NCBI GenBank assembly: GCA_027492035.1
Contig: JAOZFT010000004.1
Location: forward strand, 160,001-224,000
DNA: 64,000 bases
Origin: Thermoproteota archaeon
Lineage (GTDB): Archaea > Korarchaeota > JAOZGF01 > JAOZFZ01
Direction: 5' to 3'
A program made the translations under genes and the position numbers. Below, one piece after another: positions 492 through 57,793 of this stretch (positions within the stretch are counted from its first letter, which is position 1; the number at the start of each line of letters is the position of its first letter). The notes beneath the pieces are model-generated. The model saw nothing but the letters and a program-made list of their open reading frames with translations. It was not told the DNA's origin and made no database searches.

Positions 492-1679
492 ATGGGAAGC
501 AATTTTTTAACTTTAAAGGGGTGGCATTCACCCATTTTCAGGGATGAAACAAAACTTTACTTAGAGTATGTCCCTAAAGATCTTCCTCACCGAGAGGATA
601 CAATGAAAAAACTAACCTATTTATTTTGGCCAATTATTTCCTCTACTGGAAATTTTTCAGCTAGTGCCTGGATACATGGGGCTGTAGGAACAGGTAAAAC
701 CGCTGTTTCTAAGAAGTTTGGATTTCTCTTTGAGAAAATCAGTAAACAGAAATCATTTCTTTTAAAGTATATTCACATAAATTGTAAACAGAAAAGAACA
801 GGCTCTAATGTGATTTTATCCATCTTGGATAATTTAAACGTGACAGTGCCTTCTAGAGGACTTTCTTTTCAAGAATTAGCCTCAATACTTAAAAAAATTC
901 TGTTCAAGAAGAAAAGATATATCCTTTTAGTTTTGGATGAGGCAGGTTATCTTTTGAAAAAGGAAGGATCCGACATTATTTACAGCCTTGCACGGCTAAC
1001 AGAGGAAGAATTTAATCAGAGGCCTTTATTCTCATTTATTTTTACCTCTAAACAAGGTAGAGATGCCTTTCTTCTAGATCAAAGTACAAGAAGTTCACTT
1101 GCACCAACTAAAATTCATTTACCAAAATACAATAAGAATGAGTTAAAAGATATACTAACTCTAAGAACTGAGGAAGCTTTAAGAAAGGGAGTGATAAAGG
1201 AGGAAGTAATAGATTTAATAGCAGAAATTGCTTCTTCAAAAGGAGATGCTCGATATGCCATAGAGCTCTTGTGGAAAGCTGGTAAAGAAGCTGAAATGGA
1301 GGATTCAAAAGAAATACTTCCCTCTCATGTCCACAAAGTTAATTTATCTATTATGGAACCTAGACAATATGAGGAGATAAATAACTTGCCGAGACATGAA
1401 AAGATGGTTTTGTTAGCGATCATAAAAGAAAATCTGAGTGGAGAGAGGAAATATGCAAGGATTAAAAGGATAGTGGAGAGGTACAGGGGCATTTGTAGAA
1501 AATATGGTGAAGAACCTAGGTCCTATACTAGGGTTTGGCAATTCATAAAGGATTTACAGCACGCAGGGTTAATAGAAGTTAATAGGTTAAGTGAAGGTGA
1601 AAGAGGAACCTTAAAGATAAGGGTTACCCATGAAGAACTAAACAGTTTGGAGGGAGTAATAAAGGGGCAACTTTGCTAA
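492..1679 (+). CDS. cdc6: Orc1/Cdc6 replication initiator
   Basis: N-terminal YVPKDLPHRE, Walker A GAVGTGKT, Walker B LVLDE, sensor GDARYAIELL, C-terminal winged helix. Confidence 0.96.
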   Translation: MGSNFLTLKGWHSPIFRDETKLYLEYVPKDLPHREDTMKKLTYLFWPIISSTGNFSASAWIHGAVGTGKTAVSKKFGFLFEKISKQKSFLLKYIHINCKQKRTGSNVILSILDNLNVTVPSRGLSFQELASILKKILFKKKRYILLVLDEAGYLLKKEGSDIIYSLARLTEEEFNQRPLFSFIFTSKQGRDAFLLDQSTRSSLAPTKIHLPKYNKNELKDILTLRTEEALRKGVIKEEVIDLIAEIASSKGDARYAIELLWKAGKEAEMEDSKEILPSHVHKVNLSIMEPRQYEEINNLPRHEKMVLLAIIKENLSGERKYARIKRIVERYRGICRKYGEEPRSYTRVWQFIKDLQHAGLIEVNRLSEGERGTLKIRVTHEELNSLEGVIKGQLC

Positions 1680-11180: not shown

Positions 11181-11449
11181 ACAAAACTCACCTAACGAAA
11201 AAACTTATACAAATTTATATTTAAATCTTCCCTTTTTCTTAATGCTCCATTGACCACAAACCACGAAACAAATCAAAAAAGTTACTGCCATTAAGTGACA
11301 TAAGGGAAACCCTAGCAAAAATTTTGCGAAAAAGGAAGAAAAAATCAAATAATTTTAGGAAAATATTTCAAAAATTCGCGAATAAGAGAAAGGGAATAAA
11401 ACAAAACAAAAAAATTTAAATTATGCTGATTAACATAATATAAAGAGAA

Positions 11450-11571: not shown

Positions 11572-11649
11572 TTCCCAGCTTTTAAAATGTAGAGACGTAA
11601 AGAAGGGAATAAGTATTTTTTGAGTATAACTCTTTGGAGAAAAGAAACT

Positions 11650-13101
11650 TTAAACCCAAACTTTTTCGGTTAAAACTCCCGAAAGGAAAAGGCTGAGGCC
11701 TTTCTTATATACCCCCTCGATCTGCTCACTCCCCAAAATTTTGAAAGAAGAGACTAAGTTTTTCTCAACCATGGATTTTCTGTTTAACTTCTTCTTTATA
11801 ATTTGGGACAATATCTCTTTAACTGAAGTTTCCTCTCTTTTTAAGTCAACTACTAAACGCTGTCCCTCCAAATAGGGACCTTTCAGAACCAATTTGTTGT
11901 TTTCATACTTTTTTAGGAAACTTATAACATTTTCTTTGCTCTTTTGAAGAACCGGTGGACCATAATGTTTTTTGATAGGTAACAACCTCTTTGTAACTGT
12001 TTCAAAGATTATGCAACATTTGGTTTGCTCATTAGTCCAGTAATACTTCCCAATTATTTCTACCCCTTCTTGGCTCATAAGCATAGCTAATTTCTTTGTC
12101 GTTTTTTTAAGCTGAGGCCAGATAATATCTGGAGACTCTTCTTTTTCTAAACTGAAATCTATAAATAGCCAATAAGAACCTCGTCTCAATACTTTCCTGT
12201 TAATTTCATTTAAAGATAAAATTTGAGTTTTACCAGGGAAAAAGAAGGATAAACTAGGTTTTTTTAAGAAATTAATTGCAGAAATTATGAATTTACTCAA
12301 ATTTTTATCTGAAACAGCTGCAGCTACATTTCTTTCCTTATCAACAGGGTCTATAACGATCAAAGAGCCAGGAAAACTAGCAATTAATTTTTCAGTTAAA
12401 GGAAATCTTTCAATGTTTATTATTTCTCGTTGAGACCACTTTATAGATTCTTGAAGAAGTTTTAAGAAATTGCCATAGTGTAAAATGAGAAGCTCACAAA
12501 GATAACCAGAGAAACCTTCAGTTTTTGCGTCAGCCCCATAAACCGCTATCCCCTTCATAAACTGTTTCAGAATCCTTACTTCAGCAGCTTTTTCCTCTGT
12601 AATTTTCCCTTTCAAGTACCTATTGTGGAAAATTGTTCTATCAACAGAAGATTTTTTCTCTTCTAAACTTTTTATTTGAAAACAAGGCACTAGATCAATT
12701 TCGTAAGAGTTAATAATTAACCGGGCATAAGGGTGCTCCGCATACTTTATAATTAAGTTTTGTGTTATTTCTTTAGCTATTTTCACTGTTTCATTCTCTA
12801 ATTCTTCTTTACTGAATGATAAGGGGAAAGACAAGAAAATATCTATGTCTTTGTCACCTTTTAGCCAAGTATTTCTTGCAGTTGAACCCACTAACTCTGG
12901 TTTTGCAGGAATATTTCTTTCTTTACAAATTTCTTTTATTTTGCAGAGTAACTTGCTCGTGAACATCTTAACATATTCTATTTCTTTTTTAGAAGGCTCT
13001 ACCCTATTCAAAACATTTTTAAGGATGTCTTCAATGAGTTTTCTTTTATTACTGGAAAATGCCTCTTCAACTAGCCAATTTGACTGAAAATAAGGTTTCA
13101 T
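11650..13101 (-). CDS. cca: CCA-adding enzyme (class I)
   Basis: VGSTARNTWL..DKDIDIF, YAEHPY, DRT.FH, GFSGYLCELL, DPVDKERNVAAA; exact start uncertain. Confidence 0.96.
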   Translation of the reverse strand: MKPYFQSNWLVEEAFSSNKRKLIEDILKNVLNRVEPSKKEIEYVKMFTSKLLCKIKEICKERNIPAKPELVGSTARNTWLKGDKDIDIFLSFPLSFSKEELENETVKIAKEITQNLIIKYAEHPYARLIINSYEIDLVPCFQIKSLEEKKSSVDRTIFHNRYLKGKITEEKAAEVRILKQFMKGIAVYGADAKTEGFSGYLCELLILHYGNFLKLLQESIKWSQREIINIERFPLTEKLIASFPGSLIVIDPVDKERNVAAAVSDKNLSKFIISAINFLKKPSLSFFFPGKTQILSLNEINRKVLRRGSYWLFIDFSLEKEESPDIIWPQLKKTTKKLAMLMSQEGVEIIGKYYWTNEQTKCCIIFETVTKRLLPIKKHYGPPVLQKSKENVISFLKKYENNKLVLKGPYLEGQRLVVDLKREETSVKEILSQIIKKKLNRKSMVEKNLVSSFKILGSEQIEGVYKKGLSLFLSGVLTEKVWV

Positions 13102-13630
13102 AAACAGGACCCTTTGGCGTAAGTACAGATTTCTTTAACTTAATTTCATTAACCTCTAACGGACCGAAATCCATGTTTTTGAGGGTTAAAAGCGCACTAA
13201 CTAAGCTTTTCTCCTTAACGAAACGTTTAACTCTACCCAATGTTATATGGGAAGTAAACTCTTTTCCCAAGTCATAATTTATGTCTTTCCCAAACGAAGA
13301 AAGTAAGGCGTTGTAGACCTCCCTTATTTTTTCGTTATTTTCAGAAACTCCCACCCAGATTACTCTGGGTTTTTTCATGTTTGGAAATGCCCCTACACCA
13401 CTTAACTTTACAATGAATGACTTTATATCTGAGAGAGGCTTCATCCGTTCCTTTATTAACTTTATTTCTTCATTGTTTTTTTCTCCTAAAAAAATTAGGG
13501 TGATATGCAAATTCTGAGGCTCTACCAATTTTATAGGAATGTTTAAAGAAGCTAATTTATTTTGAACAGTCATTATTTTATTTCTCACTTCTTTATCAGT
13601 AACATCAATTGAAATAAAACAACGAACCAA
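13067..13630 (-). CDS. thpR: RNA 2',3'-cyclic phosphodiesterase (2H family)
   Basis: Two HxT motifs (LHITL, SHITL) and GAFP...PRVIWVG. Confidence 0.95.
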   Translation of the reverse strand: MVRCFISIDVTDKEVRNKIMTVQNKLASLNIPIKLVEPQNLHITLIFLGEKNNEEIKLIKERMKPLSDIKSFIVKLSGVGAFPNMKKPRVIWVGVSENNEKIREVYNALLSSFGKDINYDLGKEFTSHITLGRVKRFVKEKSLVSALLTLKNMDFGPLEVNEIKLKKSVLTPKGPVYETLFSVKLAS

Positions 13631-13752
13631 GCTTTCGCCACCTTCCTATAAAGTTTTATTAAATTTAAAAATAAAGAACAACGTGGAAAATTTAAGTTTG
13701 TAACAGATTAAAAAATTTCTTTAAAAGAGATTTATTGAAAAGATGAAAAGCC

Positions 13753-14154
13753 TTGCTTGTAAGGGCATACACGCGAGTTAATCCAACTGAAAGCCGAGAG
13801 AAAGTAGAGAAAGCTCTAAAAAATATAGTCTCGAAAGGAAAAATTCGTTGTTTCAGAAAGGGAGATGTAGATGTACTGGAAATAGAGGGATATGGTGAAG
13901 AAAGTCTTGAAACAATTTTTTACAAGATAAGACAGAAAAAAATAGTTGATTCCTTCCGAAAGTTACTTCGCCGTAATAGAGGTGGAAATGAAACAGTTAT
14001 CATGCTTAACAAACAGTCAGCCTATGTTGGTGTGATAACAGTTTGTGAAACAGAAAAGGAATCCCCTTTAGGTCCTGTGTTTTTGCAAATAAAATCTCAA
14101 AATCAAAAAATAGAAGAAATAATTGACTGGTTGGCACCTGAAACTAAAGCTTAA
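13753..14154 (+). CDS. UPF0201/DUF54 RNA-binding family protein
   Basis: VNPTESREKVEKALKN, LNKQSAYVG and ESPLGP motifs. Confidence 0.85.
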   Translation: MLVRAYTRVNPTESREKVEKALKNIVSKGKIRCFRKGDVDVLEIEGYGEESLETIFYKIRQKKIVDSFRKLLRRNRGGNETVIMLNKQSAYVGVITVCETEKESPLGPVFLQIKSQNQKIEEIIDWLAPETKA

Positions 14155-15094
14155 CTTTTTTATTGGGAAGGAAAATTTCCGGTTCCCCCTTTTCCGGGTA
14201 AGGTATGTGAACCTTCAAAAAATCTTCAGCGATTATCACCTTTTTAGGCAATGAATCTAAACCTTTCATATATTCTTCTTGGGTCGCATATCGGTTACTT
14301 ATGTGGGTAGCAACAACTAACTTAGTACTTGTTTCTTCCGCTAACTTTACCACGTCTTGGATTGTAGAATGCGATTTCTCTTCTGCATGCTGTAAATCCT
14401 TCGCTGAGAAAGGGGCGTTGTAGATTACTAAATCTGAACCCTGTGCAATTGAAATTAATTCCTCAAAAAACACGGTATCTGGTATATAAACTATTTTTCT
14501 TCCTTTCCTAGGAGGACCTATTATGTCAGAGGGCTTAATTATCCGCCCTCCCCAAGTAATTGTTTCACCTTTGATTAAAAGAGGCCTTAAATTGTTTGGA
14601 ATACTGAGTTTTTGAGCTTTTTCCCCATTGAACTTCCCTCTTCTATTTTTCTCTAAAAGAGCAACCCCTAGACAGTCAATAGAGTGCTTCACTCCAAAAA
14701 AGTTCAAGAAGTATTCATCATAAGAGTAAATGCTTCCGTCGGAAATAGGAAGAAAGGTTACTTCAAAGTTTGGATTAAGCTTGAAAAAATTTGCATGAAA
14801 AAGCAGGAAACTTCTTAATTTCTTAGGTCCAAACAGTTCTAGCTGAGTTTTGCGTCTAAACATTTTCATTGATTGAAGTAATCCTGGTAAGCCGAGTATG
14901 TGGTCCCCGTGTACATGAGAAACAATTATTTTCATTGGTTTACAGAAACCTAATTTAGATTTAGCTAGAAGGAATTGTGCCCCTTCAGCCGGATCAAGCA
15001 TAATTAGTTCCTTTTTTCGCTTAATCACTACGCAGAAGGGGTTCCTGTTCCCTAAAGAGGCTGAAGCGCCTGTTCCTAGAAAGTACACATCCAT
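14144..15094 (-). CDS. rnz: Ribonuclease Z
   Basis: FLGT, HVHGDH metallo-beta-lactamase motif, exosite, HST, THISNRY. Confidence 0.92.
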   Translation of the reverse strand: MDVYFLGTGASASLGNRNPFCVVIKRKKELIMLDPAEGAQFLLAKSKLGFCKPMKIIVSHVHGDHILGLPGLLQSMKMFRRKTQLELFGPKKLRSFLLFHANFFKLNPNFEVTFLPISDGSIYSYDEYFLNFFGVKHSIDCLGVALLEKNRRGKFNGEKAQKLSIPNNLRPLLIKGETITWGGRIIKPSDIIGPPRKGRKIVYIPDTVFFEELISIAQGSDLVIYNAPFSAKDLQHAEEKSHSTIQDVVKLAEETSTKLVVATHISNRYATQEEYMKGLDSLPKKVIIAEDFLKVHIPYPEKGEPEIFLPNKKVKL

Positions 15095-23430: not shown

Positions 23431-23616
23431 ATTCCTCCCTCCCACGAAAAAAGCCTTCATGAAAATTTTTCACTTACATTAGTTTTTTATTTTAAAGCCT
23501 CAGAAAGAATATTAAATTTAATTCTTTTCCCCGGGAAAAAAATAAATGTTTTTTTAAGTTAAAAAGTTTGAAATGCTTTTTTGTAGATAGTTTCTTTTTA
23601 ATTGTAGGTGTTGTTA

Positions 23617-24897
23617 TTGAGCGTGAAGGATGCTTTTGTTTATGGAGAAGATTATGGCACATCAAAGTTTAAGTTTGGACCCGTTTTCCTCCATGAAAAA
23701 CCTGAAATGATAGATAATAGAGGATACTTCCCTTCACCTTCACAACTTTTACCTCATATGATGGAGGAAGAAGTAAAAGAAGTTGTTGTGGGAGAAGAGG
23801 TTCAGAAGTATCTGGAAACAATAGAAGATTTATCTACTAAGTTGATTTATCCAATGAGGAAGGGAGTAGTTAGAAAAGACGATAAAAAAGCTTGGAAAGT
23901 CATAAAAGAGATAACTAAATATGGATTGTTGAAGTTCTTCCCAAAAAGAATGAAAGAATTCAACGGATTCTATGTTGTCTCCTCGCTTGCCGCTCAATCA
24001 CCACGTTACATGTACGAAAGAATTTTTGAAGTGCATAAGGAAATAAATGAAGAAGAGAATGTACCCCTTGTAAATTCCATAACAATAATTCCTCAACCAT
24101 TGGCTGTAGCTATTTCACATAAGGCAGTTACTTGCACCGTAATAGAGAGTGGTCACGGGAACACCCAAATCACACCAGTTAGTAGAGGATTAATAAGAGG
24201 TGCAATAATAGCTTTGAACAGAGGCGGAAGCGATGCAAATGCAATTACTGCCCAAATCCTTAAAGATATTGGATATAGTGACTTAGCTAGGGAAGAAAAA
24301 TTTGTTACTTTATTTAAAGAGGAAGTAGGCTTACTTCCACTGGATTTGAATATGGCAATAGATAAAGCTAAAAGGAATCCTGAAAGATTTGGGGTTATTT
24401 TTAAAGTTCCAGGGACATCAATAGAGGTTGAACTGAAAGAGGATTCATGGCAGCGTTTCTTGATAGGGGAGTATATATTTAATCCTCAGCATGAAATTTT
24501 TGAATCATATTACCAAAGGGGGTTCACTAAGCCTAGGGATACTTATATAGCTGGTGAGGAAGTTATTCCTGGTTTAGCCTCTCTTTCTGAAGTAATAATA
24601 AAATCCGTTGAGAAATGCCCGACAGAGATTCAGCCTATGTTATACCGGGACATAATTCTTTCAGGTGGAAATTTCCTTTGGAGAGTGCCCCTAAGTATGG
24701 TAGATGTTGCCACGAATTCTCAAACCAAGATAAAGTTGATGTTAGAGGAAAAGGGAATTCCTGATGTAATAGTACGGGCTGCTGAAAATCCTCAATATAG
24801 TGTTTGGAGAGGGGCTATAGTTTATGGGTTATCCTTCCCAGAGGAGGTGGAGTGGAACTGGGAAAAAATGGAAGGCTGGCTTAAGTTAATAAACTAG
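23617..24897 (+). CDS. Crenactin (archaeal actin)
   Basis: GEDYGTS phosphate-1, YPMRKG, PQPLAV, ESGHGNTQITP phosphate-2, ILSGG, QYSVWRGA, C-terminal WNWEKMEGW. Confidence 0.93.
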   Translation: MSVKDAFVYGEDYGTSKFKFGPVFLHEKPEMIDNRGYFPSPSQLLPHMMEEEVKEVVVGEEVQKYLETIEDLSTKLIYPMRKGVVRKDDKKAWKVIKEITKYGLLKFFPKRMKEFNGFYVVSSLAAQSPRYMYERIFEVHKEINEEENVPLVNSITIIPQPLAVAISHKAVTCTVIESGHGNTQITPVSRGLIRGAIIALNRGGSDANAITAQILKDIGYSDLAREEKFVTLFKEEVGLLPLDLNMAIDKAKRNPERFGVIFKVPGTSIEVELKEDSWQRFLIGEYIFNPQHEIFESYYQRGFTKPRDTYIAGEEVIPGLASLSEVIIKSVEKCPTEIQPMLYRDIILSGGNFLWRVPLSMVDVATNSQTKIKLMLEEKGIPDVIVRAAENPQYSVWRGAIVYGLSFPEEVEWNWEKMEGWLKLIN

Positions 24898-27332
24898 TTC
24901 TCTAATTCACTGACTGAACTGAAACCATTTATTTTCTTAATATGGAGGAGTTTACAGTTGACCCCTGCCTTTTTAGAGATTTTTAAAATTTTCCCTTTCA
25001 GAATATTATCTTGTGTTGCAACTAAAACTTGATGGAATACATTGCTTTTTAAAAGGGTTGAAAGGAAGACTTCCTTACATAGTTCATCTGTACCTGGTAA
25101 GGGGTCATCAAAAGCTATGAAACCTAAATTGTGGGGGCTTAAGGTGTATGAAGCAAGCAGGATAGACAGTGTTACTATTATTTTTTGACCGTCACTTAGT
25201 TTCAACGTAAATGGAACTACTTCTTTATCCCGAGTTTTCACAACTAAAAACCTATAGATGCTTCTCTTGCCCCTTTTGTCCTCTATTTCTTCTATTTTAA
25301 TAAGGATTTGAGAGAGGTCATTGTATGGGTAAATATGGTTGAAGAAACTATTTGCTGTTGTATTCAAGTTAGATACCACCTTCTTCCTCAATTCTGTTTG
25401 AATTGCGCGATAGCTTTCTCTGATAGAAATTAATTCGGTAAGAAATTCTGACAACCTTTTTTCTTTGTCTCTTAATTCTTTAAGTTTACCTTTGATTTTA
25501 ACGAGATGAGGTATGTTCTTTTGTAGCGTTAATATTTGTTTTCCTATGTTCCTTCTTTCATTTTTCAAAGAATTCAGTTGTTGAGTATTGAGGGAAAGCT
25601 CTTCAACTGTTTCCAAGTACTCTTCTTCATTAAAATTAAGCATTTCTATTCTTTTTTCAACTTCGCTCAAATTTGTTTCTATCTCAGAAAGTTTCTCCTT
25701 TAGCATTTCTATTTCCTTTATCTCCAGAGAGATAGTGTCTAACTTCCTTATTTTTTGTAGGCATATGTTTCTCGATTTTATTTTTTCGTTTATTTCATCC
25801 AGTTTCCTTTTTTCGTTTTCTACCCTAATTTCTAGCAATTTTTTGTCGTTAGTCAGTTTCTCCAGTTCTTGATTTACTTTTTTGAGGTTTAGAATGTCTA
25901 GACTTAATTTTTCAAGTCGATCTTTGGCGTCTGTAAGTTCAGTGTGGAGTTCATTGAGCTCAGAAAACCTAGCAGTTATTTTCATTATTTTCTTTTCATT
26001 TTCCCTTATTTTAGTGTTTAGTTTATCTATTTCTGACTTAGTTACTTTATGGCCGCAAACTAGGCATTCAGTTTCATTTGTTTTCTGTAACTCGTTTGTT
26101 AGAGTAGATAGTATCTTATTTACTGCCTTAACTTCTTTTTCTTTTACTTCCAGAGTTGAAAGTTCTTGCTCTATTTTCTTAATTCTTTTCTCTATTTCGG
26201 GGAGGGAACCATACTTCATTGATAATTTTTCAGCTTCCTTCCTTAGAGATTCAGCTATTACCCTTTTCTTGGTTAAGTTATCAATTTCTCCTCTCTTCTT
26301 TTCAGCTTCTAAAGTTAATTCTTTTATGTTCCTTTCCAGTAACATCTTTTCCTCTTCAAATTCCCTTATTTTTTTATGTATTACTTCCAGTTGAAAGGGC
26401 CCCGAAGAAAATGCGTTTTCATTTATTGGTGTTAAATTGATTTCATGAAACCCAGAACAAAGTTCTCTCGTTTCTTTTATCAAGTTATCTCTTTCAGAAA
26501 CTAAGTTTTCAATGTTTTTCCCACCCAAGTGTAGCAGAATTTCTTCTTTCCTGACTTCAAGGTTGGTTTTTTCCCTTATTAGACTAAAGTACTCTCCTTT
26601 ATCTTTTTCTATTTCTTCTTTCTTTTGCAGCAAAGTATTGCAAATTTTTTGCAGTTCCCTTTCTTCAGCCGCCAGCTCTTCTTCCTTTTTTAAGAGGTTT
26701 TTTAATGTTTCTTTCTTTCCGGGTAAAGATTTTACTTCTGGATAGGTAGTAACCAATTCGTTTATTTTTTGTTTAAGCTTTTCAAGTTCGTTCTTCACCG
26801 TTTTTACTGGAAAAGACTTGTAAAGGTTTTCTAATTCTGAAATCCCCATTAAGCGATCCATGATAATTGTCCGCTCAGAATCAGAACCGAAAATTAACGT
26901 TTGCAGCTCATGGTTCCTCACCAGCACATGTTTTGAGAATTCATCTGGAGTTATTTGAACTATGGCGCCTATCTTTTTCTCCACGTTTTTCTTGATTTCT
27001 TTACCTTTAAGAATTAATTTTGTCCTTAATGGGTTCCTTAATTTTTTTGTTCTAAGGATTTCAAGAACTGTTCCCTCCTCGCTAAAAAGTTCAAGTTCTA
27101 CATCCATTTCCGTAGAGCCACTGAGCATCAGGTCATCCACCTTCATTTCTCTTAGTTTCCTGGTTTCGTATGTATCCCCGAAAAGGGCAAATTCAATAGC
27201 GTCAAAAATAGTTGTTTTTCCTGCACCTGTTCTACCGTACAATAGAATTAAGCCAGGGCTGAGATTAATTACAGTTTTATTTTTAAAAGATTTAAAGTTC
27301 CCGATTGCTATTTTCTTTATGGTGTAAGCCAT
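24894..27332 (-). CDS. SMC-superfamily ATPase with Zn-hook (Arcadin-4/ClsN/Rad50-like)
   Basis: NFKSF, Walker A GRTGAGKT, long coiled coils, central CLVC hook, signature LSDGQK, Walker B FDDP; no mre11 nearby. Confidence 0.88.
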   Translation of the reverse strand: MAYTIKKIAIGNFKSFKNKTVINLSPGLILLYGRTGAGKTTIFDAIEFALFGDTYETRKLREMKVDDLMLSGSTEMDVELELFSEEGTVLEILRTKKLRNPLRTKLILKGKEIKKNVEKKIGAIVQITPDEFSKHVLVRNHELQTLIFGSDSERTIIMDRLMGISELENLYKSFPVKTVKNELEKLKQKINELVTTYPEVKSLPGKKETLKNLLKKEEELAAEERELQKICNTLLQKKEEIEKDKGEYFSLIREKTNLEVRKEEILLHLGGKNIENLVSERDNLIKETRELCSGFHEINLTPINENAFSSGPFQLEVIHKKIREFEEEKMLLERNIKELTLEAEKKRGEIDNLTKKRVIAESLRKEAEKLSMKYGSLPEIEKRIKKIEQELSTLEVKEKEVKAVNKILSTLTNELQKTNETECLVCGHKVTKSEIDKLNTKIRENEKKIMKITARFSELNELHTELTDAKDRLEKLSLDILNLKKVNQELEKLTNDKKLLEIRVENEKRKLDEINEKIKSRNICLQKIRKLDTISLEIKEIEMLKEKLSEIETNLSEVEKRIEMLNFNEEEYLETVEELSLNTQQLNSLKNERRNIGKQILTLQKNIPHLVKIKGKLKELRDKEKRLSEFLTELISIRESYRAIQTELRKKVVSNLNTTANSFFNHIYPYNDLSQILIKIEEIEDKRGKRSIYRFLVVKTRDKEVVPFTLKLSDGQKIIVTLSILLASYTLSPHNLGFIAFDDPLPGTDELCKEVFLSTLLKSNVFHQVLVATQDNILKGKILKISKKAGVNCKLLHIKKINGFSSVSELEN

Positions 27333-43623: not shown

Positions 43624-44052
43624 TTAAGGTTTCGGCTGAAGTGAAAGCACCTTTTCGTTAAGTCTGTACCTGTACCCAAGCTTATTTTCTCCCCATCTTC
43701 TAATTAATTTACCACTGCTAAAGAAACGGTATAGGTAAGTTGAAGCCACATTTTTTGGGAGTTTCTCCCCAAAAAAATCTAAATAGGCCTCTCTAAGTTC
43801 TCTACTCGTAAACCAAACTTTGCTAAACCTAGAGCAGATGATATACCAAACTCTGTCAGAAGTAGAATTAAATGAAGAAAAGCTGAAGGAAGAAAATTCA
43901 TTAAGTGAAGAATTATCAACACTTGACAATGAAAACTTTGTTAAGAAATCAAGAAGTATGGAAGGATCAACTTTCCCTTCAAGAGACATTTTAATTTCTC
44001 CATTTTCAAACAAATCAAAGATCAATCTAGCTTTCCTTTTCCTTAAATTCAT
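43624..44052 (-). CDS. Origin-adjacent winged-helix protein of unknown function
   Basis: Small N-terminal domain, Ser-rich linker, C-terminal wHTH (FTSRELREAY..FGE.LP...STYL.R....G.L.R...YRY). Confidence 0.75.
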   Translation of the reverse strand: MNLRKRKARLIFDLFENGEIKMSLEGKVDPSILLDFLTKFSLSSVDNSSLNEFSSFSFSSFNSTSDRVWYIICSRFSKVWFTSRELREAYLDFFGEKLPKNVASTYLYRFFSSGKLIRRWGENKLGYRYRLNEKVLSLQPKP

Positions 44053-44076
44053 TGTTTAAAACCCTCGCCTGTATTA

Positions 44077-44489
44077 CATTTCCACTCTTTAATAAAATAT
44101 TAATAATCGGTTTACAAAGGTAAAAAATTTGTGAACTATAACAGAAAGGGAACCAATGTACAGAATAAAAATTTAGCTATTAAATCTTTCATTTCCACTG
44201 AAAAACGATAAGTCATCAACAAAAAGAACTAAAGGAATTAAATTCAAACAATACTGGCAAAACAGAAGAAAATAAAGGTATATGTAATACTTCCTGTATC
44301 CTCCCTCTAAACGCTTTTTAGGTGGAGTTTAGTGGAAATGAAGGGGGGACGTAATAGTAAACTTTCATTTAAATATGTGAATTTTAGTGAACTTTTAACA
44401 TACACACCCCTTTATTTCAGCTGAAATAAATCTTCAATAAATTTTCCGAAGTTCTATTTTCTGCTGGGGTAAAGTTGAGTGGAAATAGA
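44077..44489. other. Putative replication origin (oriC): ORB/mini-ORB repeats around an AT-rich DUE
   Basis: Full ORB GTTTAGTGGAAATGAAGGGGGG (44327-44348, +); inverted ORB TTTCAGCTGAAATAAAGGGG (44407-44426, -); mini-ORBs with AGTGGAAAT at 44077-44087(-), 44186-44203(-), 44474-44489(+); ~78% AT spacer 44349-44406. Confidence 0.8.
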
Positions 44490-44612
44490 TGAAACATACG
44501 TGTGTGCAGGTTTTTCAAACATAAATTATTAAAACCTTTCTGTTTTAAGAGAAGGTAAAGTTTTTAAAAATAAGAGTGAATTTCTCTGTACCTTCTTAAT
44601 TAAGGTGGTTTA

Positions 44613-45710
44613 ATGCGAGAGAAATCGTTGGGAGATCTTCTTGTCGAGATTGAAAAAAGAAGTAAACTCGTTTATGAAACTTATATACTCAGTAGTAAAT
44701 ATAAATCCATTTTTAAGCCGAAAGATATAATGGAAGGTATTCTTCTTTACCCCTCCTATAAGGGAAAGGGATTAAGGCCCGCTGTGCTTCTTTTTGCTTG
44801 TGGCGCAGTGGGAGGGGATGAAAATAAAGCTTTACCTGCAGCTGCTGCTGTAGAACTTTTCCATACTTGGACATTAGTTCATGATGACATAATTGATAGG
44901 GATAAGAAGCGGAGAGGAGGACCTACTGTTCATATATATTTAAGTGACAAAGCAAAAAGAGTTTATGGGTGGGACCCCGAAACTTCCTTACATTATGGAC
45001 TATCACTAGCCATACTAGTTGGAGATACCCAAAAAGGCTGGTCAATAGGGGAGTTAATGTATCTACTTTATAAGGAGAAAGGAGTTAACCCTGTTTTAGT
45101 GCTTGAATTGATCCACAAATTAGATTTTATTACTCTTAACACTTTAGTAGAGGGTGAATCCCTAGATGTTCTTTATTCTAGGAAACCAGTTAATAAACTC
45201 ACCGAAAAAGAAATAATAGACATGTTATGGAGAAAGACAGGGGCCCTTTATAGTTTTTGTGGTGAAGCAGGTGCCATGATAGGATTAAACACTATCTATG
45301 AAAACGAGTTTGTTAAGGCTTTAAGAGATTTCACTGCAAGTTGTGGAATTGCTTTTCAACTTCAGGATGACATTCTAGGGATTGTGGGAGATGAAAATAA
45401 GCTTGGTAAACCTGTTGGTTCTGACATCCGGGAAGGTAAAAGAACGGTTATTTTGTGGTATGCTTACAAGTCTGTGGGTCCATCTGAAAGGAAATTACTG
45501 GAAAAGGTTGTAGGTAACGCCTCAGCAGAGCCGGAGGAAATTCAGGAAGTTGTTGATTTGTTAAAAGAATCAGGAGCTATTGATTACGCCAAAAATTTAG
45601 CTGTGGATTATGTAGAAAATTCTTTACCGAAACTAAATATTCTCCCTGAGACCAAGTACAAGGATCTTTTAATTTCATGGGCTAACTTCTTAATCGAAAG
45701 GAAATTTTAA
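44613..45710 (+). CDS. Polyprenyl (geranylgeranyl) diphosphate synthase
   Basis: GKGLRP, LVHDDIID..KRRG, KTG, FQLQDD, GSDIREGKRT. Confidence 0.94.
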   Translation: MREKSLGDLLVEIEKRSKLVYETYILSSKYKSIFKPKDIMEGILLYPSYKGKGLRPAVLLFACGAVGGDENKALPAAAAVELFHTWTLVHDDIIDRDKKRRGGPTVHIYLSDKAKRVYGWDPETSLHYGLSLAILVGDTQKGWSIGELMYLLYKEKGVNPVLVLELIHKLDFITLNTLVEGESLDVLYSRKPVNKLTEKEIIDMLWRKTGALYSFCGEAGAMIGLNTIYENEFVKALRDFTASCGIAFQLQDDILGIVGDENKLGKPVGSDIREGKRTVILWYAYKSVGPSERKLLEKVVGNASAEPEEIQEVVDLLKESGAIDYAKNLAVDYVENSLPKLNILPETKYKDLLISWANFLIERKF

Positions 45711-47080
45711 CCTCTTCCTAATTTTTCAATTACTCCCTCTGCGGCTATCAACCCGGTTGCACCAGCAGTTACTATTCCTCTAGAAACTCCTGCACCATCC
45801 CCTGCAACAAAAAGGTTCTCAGCCGCCTCCAAATTTTTGTTTGTCACGATTCTATGGGCTGAAAATTTTACTTCGGGTGCATAAAGTAAAGTTGATGCAC
45901 TATTAATCCCGCTAATTACCTTATCTAACATGTTAAGTCCTTCCAGTATATCTGTTAATATTCTATGAGGAAGTACAAGCGCCAAGTCTCCCGGAGTTAC
46001 ATCTGTTAAGGTTGGTTTCACATGATTTGACTTTATTCTTTTCCATGTAGATCTTCTTCCCCTTTCCAAGTCACCAAGTTTCTGTATTATGGGTTTTCCA
46101 CCGCCTAAAATATTTGCTTGTTTAGCTATCTGTCTTCCAAAGGCTGTTGTGTTTTCTACAGGCTCTGTTAACTTAACTCTTACCAAAAAAGCGAAGTTTG
46201 TATTCTCTGATTTCTTCTCATACATTGCGTGTCCATTGACGAGTATAAGTTCATCATAGACTTCCTTAACTACAAAACCTCTTTCATTTACACAAAATGT
46301 CCTTGTAAAGTCGTCATAGGTTCTGGAGTAAATATGGAACTTCGGATCTAAACTTACTTCCGTCACAGGGTCCATTACTAAAGCTGGCACCTCTACACGA
46401 ACTCCTACATCTATAGGTTCAAATTTTTTTTCCAACCCCAGTTTCTCAGCTTGATGAGAAAGCCAATTAGCTCCATATCTCCCAGGGGCAATGACCAAAA
46501 ATTTTGTTTTTATTTTTCCATTAGTGGTTTCTAACAAGTACTGTTTATTTTGCTTTTTTATTTCTAAAACCTTCGTTTTCAGGAGAAACTTAACCCCCTT
46601 TTCTCTGAGATAATTATATATGTTAGAAATAACTTTCACTGAATTATCACTCCCTATGAACCTCTGCCTTATGGGTATAAACTTTATTCCTGCAGCTGCG
46701 GATTTCCTTTCTAAGAATTTTACTTCAGGTCGATCGCCATAAACTTTCCTTGAAGCTCCAAACTTCAAAAAGAAATTATCTACTTCTTTGATGAGGTTCC
46801 ATGCTTTCTTATTTGATCCTGTTAATGCTTCAAGATCCCCTCCTATATCAGGTCTAAGGTTCAATCTCCCAGCTGATATTAAACCCGCCCCACCCACCCC
46901 GGTGAGGATTTTACATGGGTTACATTTAGTGCAAACACTAGTAACTTCTAATGGACATTTACGTTTACTTGGTTCATTCCCATAATCTATCACTAACACT
47001 CCCTTAACTTTGTTTTTAACAAGTCTATAGGCAGCCATCAAACCTGCAGGCCCAGCTCCAATTATTGCCACCTGTTGCAT
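45707..47080 (-). CDS. NAD(P)/FAD-dependent oxidoreductase (COG2509-like)
   Basis: GAGPAG, Cys cluster, GVGGAG, DVGVRVE, NGH, YAPEVKF, GDGAGVSRG. Confidence 0.88.
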   Translation of the reverse strand: MQQVAIIGAGPAGLMAAYRLVKNKVKGVLVIDYGNEPSKRKCPLEVTSVCTKCNPCKILTGVGGAGLISAGRLNLRPDIGGDLEALTGSNKKAWNLIKEVDNFFLKFGASRKVYGDRPEVKFLERKSAAAGIKFIPIRQRFIGSDNSVKVISNIYNYLREKGVKFLLKTKVLEIKKQNKQYLLETTNGKIKTKFLVIAPGRYGANWLSHQAEKLGLEKKFEPIDVGVRVEVPALVMDPVTEVSLDPKFHIYSRTYDDFTRTFCVNERGFVVKEVYDELILVNGHAMYEKKSENTNFAFLVRVKLTEPVENTTAFGRQIAKQANILGGGKPIIQKLGDLERGRRSTWKRIKSNHVKPTLTDVTPGDLALVLPHRILTDILEGLNMLDKVISGINSASTLLYAPEVKFSAHRIVTNKNLEAAENLFVAGDGAGVSRGIVTAGATGLIAAEGVIEKLGRG

Positions 47081-47408
47081 TTACTCTTCCCCATAGTAAA
47101 TAATAATAGAACCACATTATTTTTCAATCTTCAATTTCATGGCATTTCCAAAAACAAAAACCATGGTTCTTCTTTTTAAAAAAGAATATAAATTTGTTTT
47201 ATAGTTAATAAAGGTACAGAGTAACTTAAGAAACAAACCCTTTTAATATAAATTTCCTTTAAAATAATCTTTTTTAGCTTTAGTTTAGAAGTTGCAGTTT
47301 AGGAATTATTCCTTTTTACGTAACCAAGGGTGCTATTTTGTGCTGAGGTCAAAAAAACTTTACATCTATTTGCCAGAACTAAAAAAGAAACTTTATAAGG
47401 TTGGTAGA

Positions 47409-47750
47409 TTGACTTCAAGTCTTAGGTCATCTTTCTTTCAAAGATACGGTTCACGTTTTCAGAAAGCTGTTGAAGCAGTAAGTGAAGGCAATGTTTACAA
47501 GTATATTTTTAAACCTAGTGGAAGAGTTGTTTGGGTGGTGGTGGGAAGAGAAAGGGACTACTTACTTACTTCAGAATCTTTTTGCGGCTGTCCAGACTTC
47601 TACCTTAACGTAATTGTAAGGAAGAGGGTTGATGCATGCTATCACATATTAGCCAAGGTCCTAGCTGAATTTTTAGGAGTTTATAATTTAGTCGAAGCGG
47701 ATGATGAAAGCTACTCCTCTCTAAGGGAAGAATGGAACCATGTAATCTGA
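47409..47750 (+). CDS. SWIM zinc-finger protein
   Basis: WVVVG, CGCPDF...CYHILA; probable TTG start at 47409 after AAGGT. Confidence 0.85.
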   Translation: MTSSLRSSFFQRYGSRFQKAVEAVSEGNVYKYIFKPSGRVVWVVVGRERDYLLTSESFCGCPDFYLNVIVRKRVDACYHILAKVLAEFLGVYNLVEADDESYSSLREEWNHVI

Positions 47751-54340: not shown

Positions 54341-57300
54341 GTGGAACTTAGCAAATATCAAACCCTTCTTTCGGAAGAAGTAGATAAACTATATAAAATA
54401 GCTAGTGAAGCAAGAAAGAAAGGTTATGATCCTACAGAGACGGTTGAAGTAATAAAAGCGGAAGACACGCCCGAAAGAGTGGAGAAAATCCTAAACTTGA
54501 AAGGTTTAGAGCAGGAAATACGGAGTTTATTTGAGAAAGGTAAAGATAAGATAGAGTCAGGGTTTGTTGTAGCTAAAAAGATATTGTCAGGTGAATTCGG
54601 TAATTTTCCACTTGAAAAAGGTTTGGAACTCGCTTTAAGGGCCGGTTTAGCGGTAATGACCGACTGTGTCACCGCTTCACCTCTTGAAGGAATTTCAGGG
54701 GTGAAAGTGAAAAATAATTTTGATAATTCAAAGTATTTAGCAGTTTACTATTTAGGACCTATAAGAACAGCTGGAGGCACAGAGGCAGGTTTATCAGTTA
54801 TCTTAGCAGATTACTTAAGGAATTTAGCTCACTTGGATAGATATAAACCAACCGAGGATGAAGTTTTCCGTTATATGGAAGAAATGGTTCTTTACCAGAG
54901 AGGAAAGGGTAAATTACAGCAGTACGTAACTGGTGACGAATTAAAGAAGCTTCTAGATTACTTACCTGTTGAAGTAACAGGCCCTGCTTCTGAAGAAAAC
55001 GTGGAAGTAACTTTTTACCGTGACCTAAAAAGAGTTGAGACAAATGGTATAAGGGGGGGTGCTCTTATAGTTCTTGGTGAAGGTTTGCTTCTTAAAGCAA
55101 AAAAACTACTTCCGATAGTTAAAAAATTAAAAATGGAAGTTTCACTGAAAGGATGGGACTGGCTTAGTGAATTCATTAAAAAAGAAGAGCAGGGTAATTC
55201 TGTTTTCTCACTAAACAACGTCAAATATCTTGACAAATTAGCTGGTGGCCGGCCTATCTTCTCAATGCCTAATTCCAAATGGGGATTCCGCTTACGTTAT
55301 GGAAGGGCTAGAAACACCGGCTTCGCAGGGGTTGGCCTCAATCCCGCTACTATGTATCTATTAGATCAATACCTCGCAATTGGCACACAAATAAAAACTG
55401 AAAAACCGGGAAAAGCTGCTATAGTCACTCCTGTGTCCTCTATCGAAGGCCCCTTTGTACTGCTTAAAAACAACTCCCTTTTACAAGTTAATACACTTGA
55501 AGAAGCTAAACTTTTAGAACCTGAAGTTAAAGAAATAATCTCACTTGGTGATATACTTATTTCAATTGGTGACTTTTTAGAAAACAATTCTCCTCTACTT
55601 CCTTGTGGATTGAATGAGGAGTGGTGGGTTCAAGAATTAGAGGAAGCCTTGAAATCGAAGGTTAGTATTTCTCTTTCCATAACCAAAGAGAGGATTTTTT
55701 CATTTATAAATAACCCCTACACTGCCAAACCCTCCCCGGAGGAGGCTTGGGAGATATCGACAAGCTACAAAATACCGCTTCACCCGAAATACCTTTTTAA
55801 CTGGCAAAATTTAACTTTGGCAGAATTAAAGGAACTTAAGGAAATTATCAAAGTGGCTAGCACCGAAAAAGATAGCGTAGTCCTTAGTTATTCCAAAAAA
55901 CTTATTGATATCTTTCAAAAACTCTTGATTCCTTACTCATTTAAAAATGGCCAAATAAAAATTCAGCATTCACTCGCATATATTCTTTTCCGTATCTTAA
56001 ACTCTTTTACTGAAACAGACATTGACCAAGTATTGAAAGAAATAAAGATTAACCCCCCTGAAAAACTTTTTTCTGATACCTTAAACTTCCTTTCACAGAA
56101 AGTGAAGTTTCCATTTTATCCTAAAGGAGTTACCTTTATCGGTGCAAGAATGGGTAGGCCCGAAAAATCCAAAAGCAGGGTACTAAAACCACCCGTGCAT
56201 ATATTGTTTCCTGTAGGTGAATGTGGAGGCAGAGAAAGAAGCTTAAATAAAGCCTTCATTAAGGGTTACTGTAAAATAAAAATTAAGTCTAATTATTGTC
56301 CCTCATGCAAATTAGTGACACCCTACAATAAATGTGACTTTTGTGGTTCCCCTACATTACCTGCTAGATACTGCCTAAAATGTAAATCAATAGTTCCAAA
56401 TGAAACATGTCCTAATTGTGACTCTAAAACAATCCCTTACAGTTTTGCAGTTGTGAATTTACGGGAATTAATAGAGTTATCTTTAAAAAAGCTTGGTTTA
56501 TTAAGTTTAGAATCTGTAGGTGAAGTTAAGGGAGTAAAGGGCCTCATGAATAAAAGTTTAACTCCTGAATACTTAGCAAAGGGCATTTTAAGAGCTAAAT
56601 ATAAAATCTTTGTAAATAAAGATGGTACGTGCCGCTTCGATGCGGTAAATGCTCCATTAACTCATTTCAAACCCAAAGAGATAGGTTTACCTATTGAAAA
56701 AGCGCATAAACTTGGATACCTTACAGATTACAAGGGAAAACCTTTGGTTTCAGAAAACCAACTTTGCGAATTATTCGTTCAGGACGTGATTTTGCCCAGG
56801 GAAGCTGCAGCCTACTTTGTCAACGTAGCAAATTTCATAGATGAACTACTTGAAAAAATTTATGGGATGGAACCCTACTACAATATAAGTAAGGATGAAG
56901 ATCTGATAGGACATATAGTGTTCGGTATTTCACCTCACACCTTCGTTGCCATAACAGGTAGGGTTATAGGATTTACTGATTCCAAGGTTCAGTATGCTCA
57001 CCCTGTCTTCCATGCTGCTAAGAGAAGAAATTGTGACGGTGACGAGGATTCCTTCATACTTGGCCTAGACGCTTTCATAAATTTCTCTAGGGAATATATT
57101 CCTTCAAAGGTTGGGGGTAAGGAAGATGTACCCCTTCTTTTTCTCGTTAAAATAGACATGAAAAATGTCGACGATGAAGTATACAGTATGGAAATATCAA
57201 ACCGCCTCCCGTTAAAGTTTTATAGGTCAATTCATTCAAGGGAAGCGTTACAGGCTTCTTTAGATGGTTTAAGGAAAGTTGGTGACATATTGGATTCTGA

Positions 57301-57793
57301 GTTTATTCATTTCCCCTTTACACATGAAACTTCATCTATTCAGGGTGCACCACTTGTTTCTCGCTACAAAAACCTAGGTTTAGAGAGTTCAATGTTTAAC
57401 AAAATTATAGCTCAGCTTGAATTAGCTAAAAAATTGAAAGGCGTTTCAGTCGATACCGTTGCTTCTCTTCTTATTGAAAGCCATTTCCTTCCGGACATAA
57501 TTGGGAACCTAAGGAACTTTACTCAACAGAGCTTCAGATGCGTTGTATGCAATAGAAAATATAGAAGGCCTCCCCTATCAGGTAAATGTGTTTGCGGAGG
57601 CAAGTTAATTCTTAACACCCCAAAGGGTGGTGTGTTAAAATATGTTGAAGTTGTTCAATACTTAATTGACAATTACAAAGTTCCATCTTACTTAAAAGAA
57701 AGATTTAGGTTACTTAAAGAAGAAATAAATCAACTCTTCGCTGTTGAATTTAAAAATAAAGAGTCTAAGGGGCTACTAGAGGAATTCCTTTAA
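54341..57793 (+). CDS. polC: DNA polymerase D large subunit (DP2)
   Basis: GPIRTAGGT, FRLRYGRAR, IGARMGRPEK, DGTCRFD, HAAKRRNCDGDED, C-terminal Zn finger; no intein. Confidence 0.97.
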   Translation: MELSKYQTLLSEEVDKLYKIASEARKKGYDPTETVEVIKAEDTPERVEKILNLKGLEQEIRSLFEKGKDKIESGFVVAKKILSGEFGNFPLEKGLELALRAGLAVMTDCVTASPLEGISGVKVKNNFDNSKYLAVYYLGPIRTAGGTEAGLSVILADYLRNLAHLDRYKPTEDEVFRYMEEMVLYQRGKGKLQQYVTGDELKKLLDYLPVEVTGPASEENVEVTFYRDLKRVETNGIRGGALIVLGEGLLLKAKKLLPIVKKLKMEVSLKGWDWLSEFIKKEEQGNSVFSLNNVKYLDKLAGGRPIFSMPNSKWGFRLRYGRARNTGFAGVGLNPATMYLLDQYLAIGTQIKTEKPGKAAIVTPVSSIEGPFVLLKNNSLLQVNTLEEAKLLEPEVKEIISLGDILISIGDFLENNSPLLPCGLNEEWWVQELEEALKSKVSISLSITKERIFSFINNPYTAKPSPEEAWEISTSYKIPLHPKYLFNWQNLTLAELKELKEIIKVASTEKDSVVLSYSKKLIDIFQKLLIPYSFKNGQIKIQHSLAYILFRILNSFTETDIDQVLKEIKINPPEKLFSDTLNFLSQKVKFPFYPKGVTFIGARMGRPEKSKSRVLKPPVHILFPVGECGGRERSLNKAFIKGYCKIKIKSNYCPSCKLVTPYNKCDFCGSPTLPARYCLKCKSIVPNETCPNCDSKTIPYSFAVVNLRELIELSLKKLGLLSLESVGEVKGVKGLMNKSLTPEYLAKGILRAKYKIFVNKDGTCRFDAVNAPLTHFKPKEIGLPIEKAHKLGYLTDYKGKPLVSENQLCELFVQDVILPREAAAYFVNVANFIDELLEKIYGMEPYYNISKDEDLIGHIVFGISPHTFVAITGRVIGFTDSKVQYAHPVFHAAKRRNCDGDEDSFILGLDAFINFSREYIPSKVGGKEDVPLLFLVKIDMKNVDDEVYSMEISNRLPLKFYRSIHSREALQASLDGLRKVGDILDSEFIHFPFTHETSSIQGAPLVSRYKNLGLESSMFNKIIAQLELAKKLKGVSVDTVASLLIESHFLPDIIGNLRNFTQQSFRCVVCNRKYRRPPLSGKCVCGGKLILNTPKGGVLKYVEVVQYLIDNYKVPSYLKERFRLLKEEINQLFAVEFKNKESKGLLEEFL

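Follow-up and report, generated by a model that had tools for sequence, protein, structure and literature searches.

The window analyzed here, a stretch of 64,000 nucleotides of a Thermoproteota archaeon (positions 160,001 to 224,000 of contig JAOZFT010000004.1, assembly GCA_027492035.1), contains on its minus strand, at positions 43624-44052, an open reading frame (ORF) for a 142-aa protein, denoted P0001. P0001 belongs to an unnamed, single-copy archaeal protein family whose genes, in other archaeal classes, lie directly downstream of arrays of origin recognition boxes (ORBs), and comparison of these loci supports a linkage of the family with replication origins across classes. The genome of the window (G000; 1.87-Mb assembly, with the window on contig C9 and contigs C12, C32 and C37 mentioned below) retains this arrangement. 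We consider P0001, with a probability of about 45%, an origin-associated DNA-binding accessory factor or regulator, analogous to Sulfolobus UBP, that would bind in the spacer on the side of its own gene.

Distribution of the P0001 family and its linkage to ORB arrays

In the initial annotation of the window, P0001 was described as an orphan, and a word-based homolog search recovered only P0001 itself. The orphan status proved wrong: an exhaustive phmmer search with P0001 yielded 59 cluster representatives (E<=1e-3), mostly of 120-170 aa and aligned end to end, and a Nitrosopumilus member of the family has 4354 relatives at E<=1e-10. The phmmer matches range in size from 80 to 226 aa, save one of 706 aa. 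An alignment of 48 family members (A1) consists of a conserved N-terminal pattern, K.KIE..DG.KI.I.LEG, a linker of variable length, and a conserved C-terminal block, WFTS...Y...YGE.I.LST.STYL.RL...G.L.R.G.R...YR, in which Y106, L107, R109 and Y129 are invariant and the recognition helix is nearly so. All the source records of family members that were examined are annotated as hypothetical proteins, a full-text search of the literature found no paper on the family, and, in the ESM Atlas, P0001 falls among unnamed archaeal clusters that are commonest in Bathyarchaeota and Nitrososphaerota.

Genomes of other lineages were reached via their MCM loci and then searched with a profile of the family, which invariably detected one copy per genome; in G000, the gene is likewise single-copy. 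The family is represented in 116 of the 121 Nitrososphaeria genomes (115 of 120, leaving out the unpublished G155), 61 of 101 Bathyarchaeia genomes, and 32 of 86 genomes of the class that includes Thermofilum and the Thermofilaceae metagenome-assembled genome (MAG) described below. In the phylum of the window, family members were found in three of the 43 genomes searched (G000, G001 and G002), the proteins of G001 and G002 being the closest relatives of P0001 (52% and 30% identity, respectively). Two more weak matches in this phylum are true BlaI-like genes with an HExxH membrane-protein partner and belong to a different family. Members were also detected in one Helarchaeota genome and one MAG labelled Njordarchaeota, and none was found in one genome each of Thorarchaeota, Heimdallarchaeota and Korarchaeum.

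Among BlaI-type genes, we observed that, at loci L018, L102 and L017 (G025, G047 and G028), a 130-aa winged-helix gene of this type overlaps the downstream gene for an HExxH membrane protein by 4 bp. These BlaI-type/BlaR1-like pairs of archaeal MAGs, a pair type better known from bacteria, adjoin an ABC transporter.

The linkage to origins is most readily seen in Nitrosopumilus. In a MAG of this genus, the P0001 homolog (E 5e-38) is divergent from a 402-aa ORF, read from its sequence as Orc1/Cdc6 (BLASTP, 37% identity to cdc6-2 of G000), across a 473-bp spacer with three ORBs, namely, GAGTGGAAAT and two copies of CCTGGAGTGGAAAT...GGGG. ORFs that, by reading of their sequences, were named as the PolD subunits DP1 and DP2 are located near the family gene (at locus L103, the family gene occupies 8207-8596 and the 1125-aa ORF read as DP2 occupies 10797-14174). 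The neighborhood of origin, P0001-family gene and DP2 is common to G000 and Nitrosopumilus. In a second Nitrososphaerota MAG and in the Thermofilaceae MAG, the family member is encoded just downstream of four canonical ORBs each, for example, TTCCACTGGAAATGAGGGGG and TTCCAGTGGAAGTAAGGGGG. In two genomes with 41 (G044) and 68 (G046) SAGTGGAAR sites, the only cluster of three such sites within 800 bp is found just upstream of the family gene.

For a class-wide count, we scored ORB cores (A[GC]TGGAA on either strand, with sites within 8 nt merged) across the 700 nt preceding the family gene at the 30 best loci of each class, leaving out loci whose upstream sequence fell short of 400 nt and taking the reversed pattern, shuffled sequences and the downstream regions as controls. 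At least two cores were present in 23 of 28 Nitrososphaeria loci (66 sites, compared to 2 for the reversed pattern, 6.8 in shuffles and 1 downstream), 17 of 27 loci of the Thermofilum class (48 sites, compared to 3, 5.1 and 8), and 11 of 28 Bathyarchaeia loci (42 sites, compared to 4, 6.3 and 8), with at least one core in 25 of the 28 Bathyarchaeia loci. An unbiased analysis of 7-mer enrichment in the Thermofilum class placed the ORB core and the G-string element on top (21-22 of 28 loci, with 0.7-2 expected). The ORB core is the only DNA element common to all lineages with the P0001 family.

A divergent Cdc6 gene is located within 1.5 kb of the family gene at 24 of 30 Nitrososphaeria loci, 27 of 30 Bathyarchaeia loci, and none of the 30 loci of the Thermofilum class. 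The six Nitrososphaeria exceptions comprise two loci with truncated upstream sequence, two with Cdc6 and three ORBs about 2.4-2.8 kb upstream, one that is 2.4 kb from the end of a 1.58-Mb contig, and one with neither Cdc6 nor ORBs within 5 kb. Because the ORB boxes remain at the Thermofilum-class loci, where divergent Cdc6 is missing, the family gene keeps to the boxes even where orc1 does not. Thus, the proposal in the initial annotation of an uncharacterized factor tied to the origin, with its putative promoter inside the ORB array, is supported by homologs in other classes that are encoded directly downstream of ORB arrays.

Stretches resembling structured RNAs (tRNA-like and, in one case, 5S-like by eye) occur in or beside several ORB spacers: L105 6796-6905 (the Thermofilaceae MAG), L009 5913-6040, and the spacer of L104. 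A further motif pair, ACACACCCC / GTGTGTG, is present in the G000 spacer at 44402-44410 and 44500-44506; G001, Nitrosopumilus and another Nitrososphaerota MAG have similar GGTGTGT(G/C) words in their spacers, as do 24 of 29 Nitrososphaeria loci.

The G000 spacer and the orc1-1 locus

The spacer upstream of the P0001 gene, which extends to the polyprenyl synthetase gene (Table 1), contains four of the nine occurrences of the 8-mer AGTGGAAA in the window (minus strand at 44079 and 44192, plus strand at 44331 and 44478). All four boxes share the 9-mer AGTGGAAAT and are arranged in inverted pairs, two per strand. Box c is directly followed by GAAGGGGGG, with the G-string GGGGGG, as in a full origin recognition box, and the mini-ORB that had been noted about 25 bp upstream of the P0001 start is confirmed as box a. 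Across G000, AGTGGAAAT occurs 44 times in 1.87 Mb, and the four sites in the spacer (about 410 bp, non-coding) are its sole cluster; elsewhere, two sites come within 1 kb of each other only on contig C37. A scan with a position weight matrix built from the spacer's own boxes, and therefore circular, revealed no second cluster in G000. The looser 7-mer A[GC]TGGAA was rejected as a genome-wide detector in G000: it has 951 sites, with 35 clusters of at least three in 600 bp, and the four clusters inspected (four or five sites each) are wholly or partly inside reading frames of at least 120 aa. Because the 7-mer is unspecific in this genome, the G000 case rests on the 8-mer and the 9-mer. In G001 and G002, AGTGGAAA showed no genome-wide enrichment among the matches listed. 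An Rfam search of the spacer gave a chance match alone (E 0.92).

Of the features by which an archaeal oriC is recognized, several inverted ORB boxes in an A+T-rich, gene-free spacer are present at 44053-44612, and an adjacent orc1/cdc6 gene is absent in G000. The sequence of the spacer thus makes it a candidate oriC. The three Cdc6 genes of G000 are located at C9:160 kb, C9:324 kb and C12:57 kb, and none adjoins the spacer, at C9:204 kb; the Cdc6 gene of the window is 42 kb away. The rule invoked in the initial annotation, that origins usually neighbor their initiator, fails here. The Cdc6 encoded at C9:324189-325373 shows 36-46% identity to the origin-adjacent Cdc6 proteins of other classes, compared to 25-32% for the Cdc6 of the window, with the latter and the third paralog reaching only 25-35%. 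By these identities, the C9:324189-325373 paralog is the ortholog of the origin-adjacent Orc1-1, and cdc6-1 of the window is not.

The orc1-1 gene adjoins a 535-aa ORF that we read as PolD DP1 (combined span 324189-327013), and upstream of it are two tRNA genes and a single palindromic TTCCACTGGAA about 560 bp away. In Nitrosopumilus, the gene order is DP1, orc1, the ORB spacer, the P0001-family gene and, a few genes on, DP2; in G000, orc1-1 and DP1 are at 324-327 kb of C9, and the ORB spacer, the P0001 gene and DP2 are at 204-218 kb. The simplest reading of these gene orders is a rearrangement in G000 with a breakpoint between orc1-1 and the ORB boxes, which suggests that an ancestral orc1-oriC module was split, leaving orc1-1 120 kb from the ORB array. 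With G000, the link between the family gene and the ORBs is seen to hold in a lineage that differs at the phylum level, and to have outlasted the departure of orc1.

Alternatively, the G000 spacer could be a relic or an Orc1-dependent regulatory region, with the active origin elsewhere, for example, near orc1-1 (C9:324 kb) or at a box cluster on C32, so that the origin link would be historical only. Such a scenario would fit the lack of an adjoining Cdc6 gene, the palindromic TTCCACTGGAA upstream of orc1-1, the three AGTGGAAA sites clustered on C32, the lack of a marked A+T-rich core between the inverted boxes, and the uninformative GC skew. We consider it very unlikely, given that the four identical 9-mers in inverted pairs, together with the G-string, make the spacer the strongest ORB array in the assembly, that only single boxes are found near the three Cdc6 genes, and that, in the two Nitrososphaeria genomes fully listed, no ORB cluster exists besides the homologous spacer.

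The C32 cluster is the only other group of three AGTGGAAA 8-mers in G000. It consists of three AGTGGAAA(C/A) boxes, two in one direction and one inverted, at C32:8562-9525, in a spacer of about 960 bp that is flanked by a 315-aa ORF and a small gene pair resembling, by eye, an AbrB-type antitoxin and a PIN toxin. This cluster could represent either a second origin or one that belongs to an integrated element.

Fold, candidate binding sites and possible role of P0001

The AlphaFold2 (AF2) model of P0001, built from A1, has a mean predicted local distance difference test score (pLDDT) of 85. The C-terminal half is modeled as a winged helix, as anticipated in the initial annotation, with helices H64-75, H83-94 and H100-112 and wing strands 116-120/127-131 (pLDDT 92-98 in blocks 61-130). 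The N-terminal small domain possibly has a role in multimerization. The absence of an AAA+ domain was also borne out by the length of the protein and by a Pfam scan at E<=10, in which the sole match was a chance hit to DERM. The fold searches, namely Foldseek against the PDB and two VIA comparisons, covered the C-terminal domain, with 50 matches considered per search; absence from among these matches excludes no family. In Foldseek, the best matches for the winged helix-turn-helix (wHTH) were STIV F93, the Fur DNA-binding domain, MarR and PadR (E ~0.01). VIA-align ranked the Fur DNA-binding domain 9ire_B (Z 10.9, root mean square deviation 1.9 over 71 aligned residues) above the PadR-like 3elk_B (Z 10.0) and the BlaI-type 2g9w_B (Z 8.6), the last being the only BlaI/MecI chain among the matches; winged helices of cullins and kleisins scored Z 8.2-9.1. 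At the sequence level, weak matches to Penicillinase_R (Pfam, BlaI/MecI type) were obtained for 31 of the 48 members at E<=0.1 (best 3.5e-6), to NCBIfam CopY_TcrY for 10, and to Pfam MCM_C for 6 (best E 5e-5). A search of PDB sequences with the family profile gave nothing meaningful, the best matches being RAP and a PLP-homeostasis protein (E 0.007-0.01). Thus, the C-terminal domain is predicted to be a generic regulator-type winged helix, closest to the Fur, PadR and BlaI/CopY types. Of the outcomes named in advance as counting against an origin factor, a generic fold was observed, and a lack of origin linkage among the homologs is contradicted by the ORB arrays upstream of the family gene in other classes.

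The specific claim that the C-terminus of P0001 resembles the winged helix of the window's Cdc6, as a stand-alone domain of this kind, was not sustained by comparison of sequences or profiles. BLASTP of P0001 against this Cdc6 found nothing in the winged-helix region (best segment E 0.29, in the AAA part); hhalign of A1 against an alignment of twelve Orc1-1-type proteins (A4) gave a probability of 0.3%; and Cdc6_C was not among the 25 most-matched of the 51 Pfam families hit by the 48 members. In Cdc6, a domain of this type is preceded by an AAA+ ATPase and a lid, and in P0001, residues 1-45 form a beta-hairpin and a helix instead. On the strength of the BLASTP, Pfam and hhalign results, we ruled out P0001 as a stand-alone Cdc6 winged-helix domain; the alignment by eye is explained by the common winged-helix topology and nothing more specific. 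The predicted complex of G000 Orc1-1 (A4) with P0001 (A1) scored 0.00 in both runs, which were made with no control runs, and this score counts neither toward nor against binding.

The broader notion of a Cdc6-derived winged helix reading ORBs, or of an alternative initiator like WhiP, draws on the location of the P0001 gene next to ORBs and on the combination of a nearly invariant recognition helix with an ORB core that alone is conserved across all lineages. We regard it as extremely improbable because P0001 lacks sequence or profile similarity to the Cdc6 winged helix, no Orc1/Cdc6 chain was among the 50 matches of any of the three fold searches, the model has one winged helix in place of the two of WhiP and Cdt1, and an Orc1-1-type Cdc6 is kept in every genome examined in detail. 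The WhiP-like initiator role raised in the initial annotation also finds no support in the Pfam matches: no CDT1-type family was among the 25 of 51 families listed for the members.

The winged helix might also be a protein-binding module, an adaptor or competitor at the origin akin to the C-terminal winged helix of MCM, which contacts ORB-bound Orc1, or to Cdt1/WhiP. The MCM_C matches and the Z scores of cullin and kleisin winged helices, which bind proteins, point in this direction, as does the binding of Orc1-1 by the MCM winged-helix domain reported in the available text of PMC12141716. This option appears even less probable than a relic spacer: the likeness to the DNA-binding BlaI/CopY type extends to far more members (31 of 48), and the positions of the conserved T-Y-L-x-R helix and wing tyrosine correspond to those in winged helices that read DNA.

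As a candidate second motif, we considered GTGAAYT boxes of the TGTGAA type, a motif chosen after seeing the data; four of its 23 sites in the window are in the 560-bp spacer. The block TTCACAnATTnTTTACCTTTGT around 44131 is conserved in G000 and G001, whose spacers have in common a block near the promoter that contains AGTGGAA and TTCACAnATT. Among the words upstream of Bathyarchaeia family genes, TGTGAA/TTCACA shows the strongest enrichment, with TTCACAA in 26 of 28 loci (4 expected) and at least two TGTGAA in all 28 spacers (138 sites, compared to 16 for the reversed pattern and 13.6 in shuffles). The Bathyarchaeia sites are concentrated at -350 to -1 on the side of the family gene, frequently in the arrangement TTCACA...TGTGAA about the likely promoter. 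TGTGAA occurs five times in each of two basal Nitrososphaerota-type spacers, three times in that of G002, and twice each in those of G000 and G001.

Combining these observations, we propose the following tentative scheme. The ancestral origin module would have consisted of orc1-1, the ORB array (oriC) and the P0001-family gene, in this order. In G000, a rearrangement would have carried orc1-1, with polD-DP1, 120 kb off, and the P0001 gene would have stayed with the ORB array. P0001 would bind double-stranded DNA sequence-specifically within the spacer, on the side of its own gene, the candidate sites being the promoter-proximal box and the TGTGAA/GTGAA-type boxes. When bound, it would control its own promoter and modulate the action of Orc1 or MCM at the origin, in the manner of Sulfolobus UBP or of bacterial factors of the IHF/Fis/SeqA type, without being related to them.

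The principal competing explanation is that P0001 is an ordinary transcription factor acting on genes elsewhere, with the ORB boxes serving as operators through which Orc1/Cdc6 turns its gene on or off in step with the replication cycle, and with the location beside oriC serving timing or dosage rather than any action at the origin. The Fur/PadR/MarR/BlaI-type fold is what one would expect of such a protein; the ORB-like box 25 bp before the start codon, at a position kept in G001, is placed where a bound protein would block the promoter; the inverted TTCACA...TGTGAA around the Bathyarchaeia promoter resembles an autoregulatory operator; and, in the available text of PMC12490963, Saccharolobus Orc1 paralogs are described as global transcription regulators. 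This explanation, which we consider rather unlikely, fails to account for the gene staying with the ORB array across classes even after orc1 left, and the promoter-proximal position of the ORB is not conserved, the nearest exact core in Nitrosopumilales typically being at about -171.

Several observations weigh against our preferred reading of P0001 as an origin-associated accessory factor. The fold alone suits any transcription factor. TGTGAA is unenriched in Nitrosopumilales, where GTTAAC-type and GGTGTGTG words are prominent, and neither TGTGAA nor GTTAAC/GGTGTGTG is enriched in the Thermofilum class; given that these boxes vary and the recognition helix hardly does, the TGTGAA and GTTAAC-type boxes may not be sites of the P0001 family. 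As for the ORBs, the spacers of G001 and G002 hold one exact core each, the other box positions of G001 being degenerate variants in the G000/G001 spacer alignment; no ORB was found upstream of the Helarchaeota homolog; at least two exact cores are present in only 11 of 28 Bathyarchaeia loci; and the loose 7-mer is unspecific in G000, as noted above. In the G000 spacer, the segment between the inverted inner boxes (44200-44330) has 31% GC, not below the 29.6% of the whole spacer, and the cumulative GC skew on C9 is weak, with a peak at about 200-210 kb and no minimum there.

A more far-reaching version of the accessory-factor reading would make the P0001 family an essential component of origin recognition, conserved and second to Orc1, in archaea of the Thermoproteota type (Nitrososphaeria, Bathyarchaeia, relatives of Thermofilum and the lineage of the window), which would read boxes inside oriC and gate Orc1 binding or MCM loading and release once per cycle. 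The boxes read could include the ORB-like core, given the nearly invariant recognition helix. We consider this version unlikely; if true, the P0001 family would be the counterpart, long missing, to Sulfolobus UBP or to origin regulators of bacteria, and would be tied to the origin more tightly than the orc1 gene itself.

In the window, the neighbors of the P0001 gene are a TFS-type zinc-ribbon gene and the polyprenyl synthetase gene, and no BlaR1-type sensor protease was found among the neighboring genes. A gene at 47292-47750 (plus strand) encodes a 152-aa Cys/His-containing protein without a Pfam match and adjoins a gene for a FAD-dependent protein (45707-47080). The former is kept, together with the latter, in G001 (L009 10505-10942), where the P0001-family gene and spacer are inverted relative to them. 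Elsewhere in the window, an actin-family gene (23608-24897, plus strand; Pfam Actin, E 5e-16) adjoins a gene for a Rad50/SMC-like ATPase (24894-27332).

Table 1. P0001, its upstream spacer and related features, in window coordinates
Feature	Position	Strand	Basis and remarks
Cdc6 paralog cdc6-1 (used in the comparison by eye)	492..1679	+	Pfam Cdc6_lid, Cdc6_C, AAA_22
Gene for origin-linked winged-helix protein P0001	43624..44052	-	ORF call, ATG start at 44050-44052, 142 aa
C-terminal wHTH, residues 61-134	43651..43872	-	AF2 pLDDT 92-98; recognition helix ...VASTYLYRF...
Ser-rich linker, residues 46-60	43873..43917	-	pLDDT 52-54 in blocks 41-60, residues 47-55 <50; length variable in A1
N-terminal small domain, residues 1-45	43918..44052	-	AF2: beta-hairpin E9-14/E20-25 and helix H30-45; A1 pattern
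Gene-free spacer with ORB array; candidate oriC and putative promoter of the P0001 gene	44053..44612	.	560 bp, 29.6% GC (window, 35.8%)
ORB-like box a, AGTGGAAAT, promoter-proximal	44078..44086	-	25 bp before start codon; position kept as AGTGGAAG in G001
Most A+T-rich spacer segment, possible unwinding region	44087..44190	.	23% GC, between boxes a and b
GTGAAYT box, TGTGAA type, candidate second motif	44131..44137	+	one of four (44131, 44377, 44387, 44576), all +
ORB-like box b, TTCAGTGGAAATGAA	44191..44199	-	arm of 15-nt inverted repeat with box c (93% complementary, 125 nt apart)
ORB box c with G-string, AGTGGAAATGAAGGGGGG, most canonical ORB	44331..44348	+	site search and repeat search
ORB-like box d, GAGTGGAAAT	44478..44486	+	19-nt direct repeat with box c (84%)
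PolD large subunit DP2	54341..57793	+	Pfam; 10 kb from spacer

Comparison with known systems

To our knowledge, the only proteins known to act at archaeal origins are Orc1/Cdc6, WhiP and the UBP of Sulfolobales. With the Orc1/Cdc6 winged helix (Cdc6_C, PF09079), P0001 shares the general winged-helix topology and nearness to ORBs, and differs from these proteins in the absence of AAA+ and lid domains and of any sequence or profile similarity. In Nitrosopumilus maritimus, the origin was reportedly mapped beside cdc6, in work from 2013 attributed to Pelve et al. This species has a single origin according to the available text of PMC4010727. Ori-Finder2 origins are reported for Thermofilum adornatum in a preprint, and none in its available text could be mapped to the P0001 family.

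The closest sequence signal in the P0001 family is to the BlaI/MecI/CopY repressors (Penicillinase_R, PF03965; TIGR02698), with the pattern S-T-x-S/T-T-x-L-x-R-L...G-x-L in common. The operators of these repressors contain TACA/TGTA, which is close to the TGTGAA boxes of P0001-family spacers. BlaI and MecI consist of an N-terminal wHTH and C-terminal dimerization helices and are paired with a gene for a membrane protease of the BlaR1/MecR1 type, whereas, in P0001, the order is reversed, with the wHTH at the C-terminus, and there is no BlaR1-type neighbor. P0001 itself has no Penicillinase_R match; the weak matches of 31 of the 48 members point to a related wHTH type rather than to membership in Penicillinase_R.

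WhiP, a Cdt1-like protein larger than P0001, has two tandem winged helices, whereas the P0001 model has one. Like P0001, WhiP is a winged-helix protein encoded next to an origin, in this case Sulfolobus oriC3, which it serves; in contrast to the P0001 spacer, which is an ORB array, oriC3 has no ORB or mini-ORB (available text of PMC4010727).

The closest working analog of the P0001 family, on present comparison, appears to be UBP (Saci_0847 / SiRe_1573), the ucm-binding protein of Sulfolobales and Desulfurococcales. As described in the available text of PMC12141716, UBP binds the non-ORB ucm motif in origins, contacts MCM, and has a saddle-shaped, beta-rich fold that reads DNA by beta-hairpins (PDB 9EFD-9EFF). 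Both are small non-initiator proteins tied to archaeal origins, and P0001, in the reading favored here, would likewise bind a non-ORB motif in oriC. The folds differ, the AF2 model of P0001 being an alpha/beta winged helix, and no 9EF* entry was among the 50 matches of each fold search. Furthermore, UBP is highly abundant and has more than 300 genomic sites. The P0001-family gene adjoins the ORB array. The P0001-family gene could serve as a practical marker for origins in metagenome-assembled genomes in which orc1 is not origin-adjacent. The authors of the UBP study point out that UBP is narrowly distributed and raise the question of analogs elsewhere (PMC12141716, available text); the P0001 family is a concrete candidate for such an analog in other lineages, including the globally abundant ammonia-oxidizing class.

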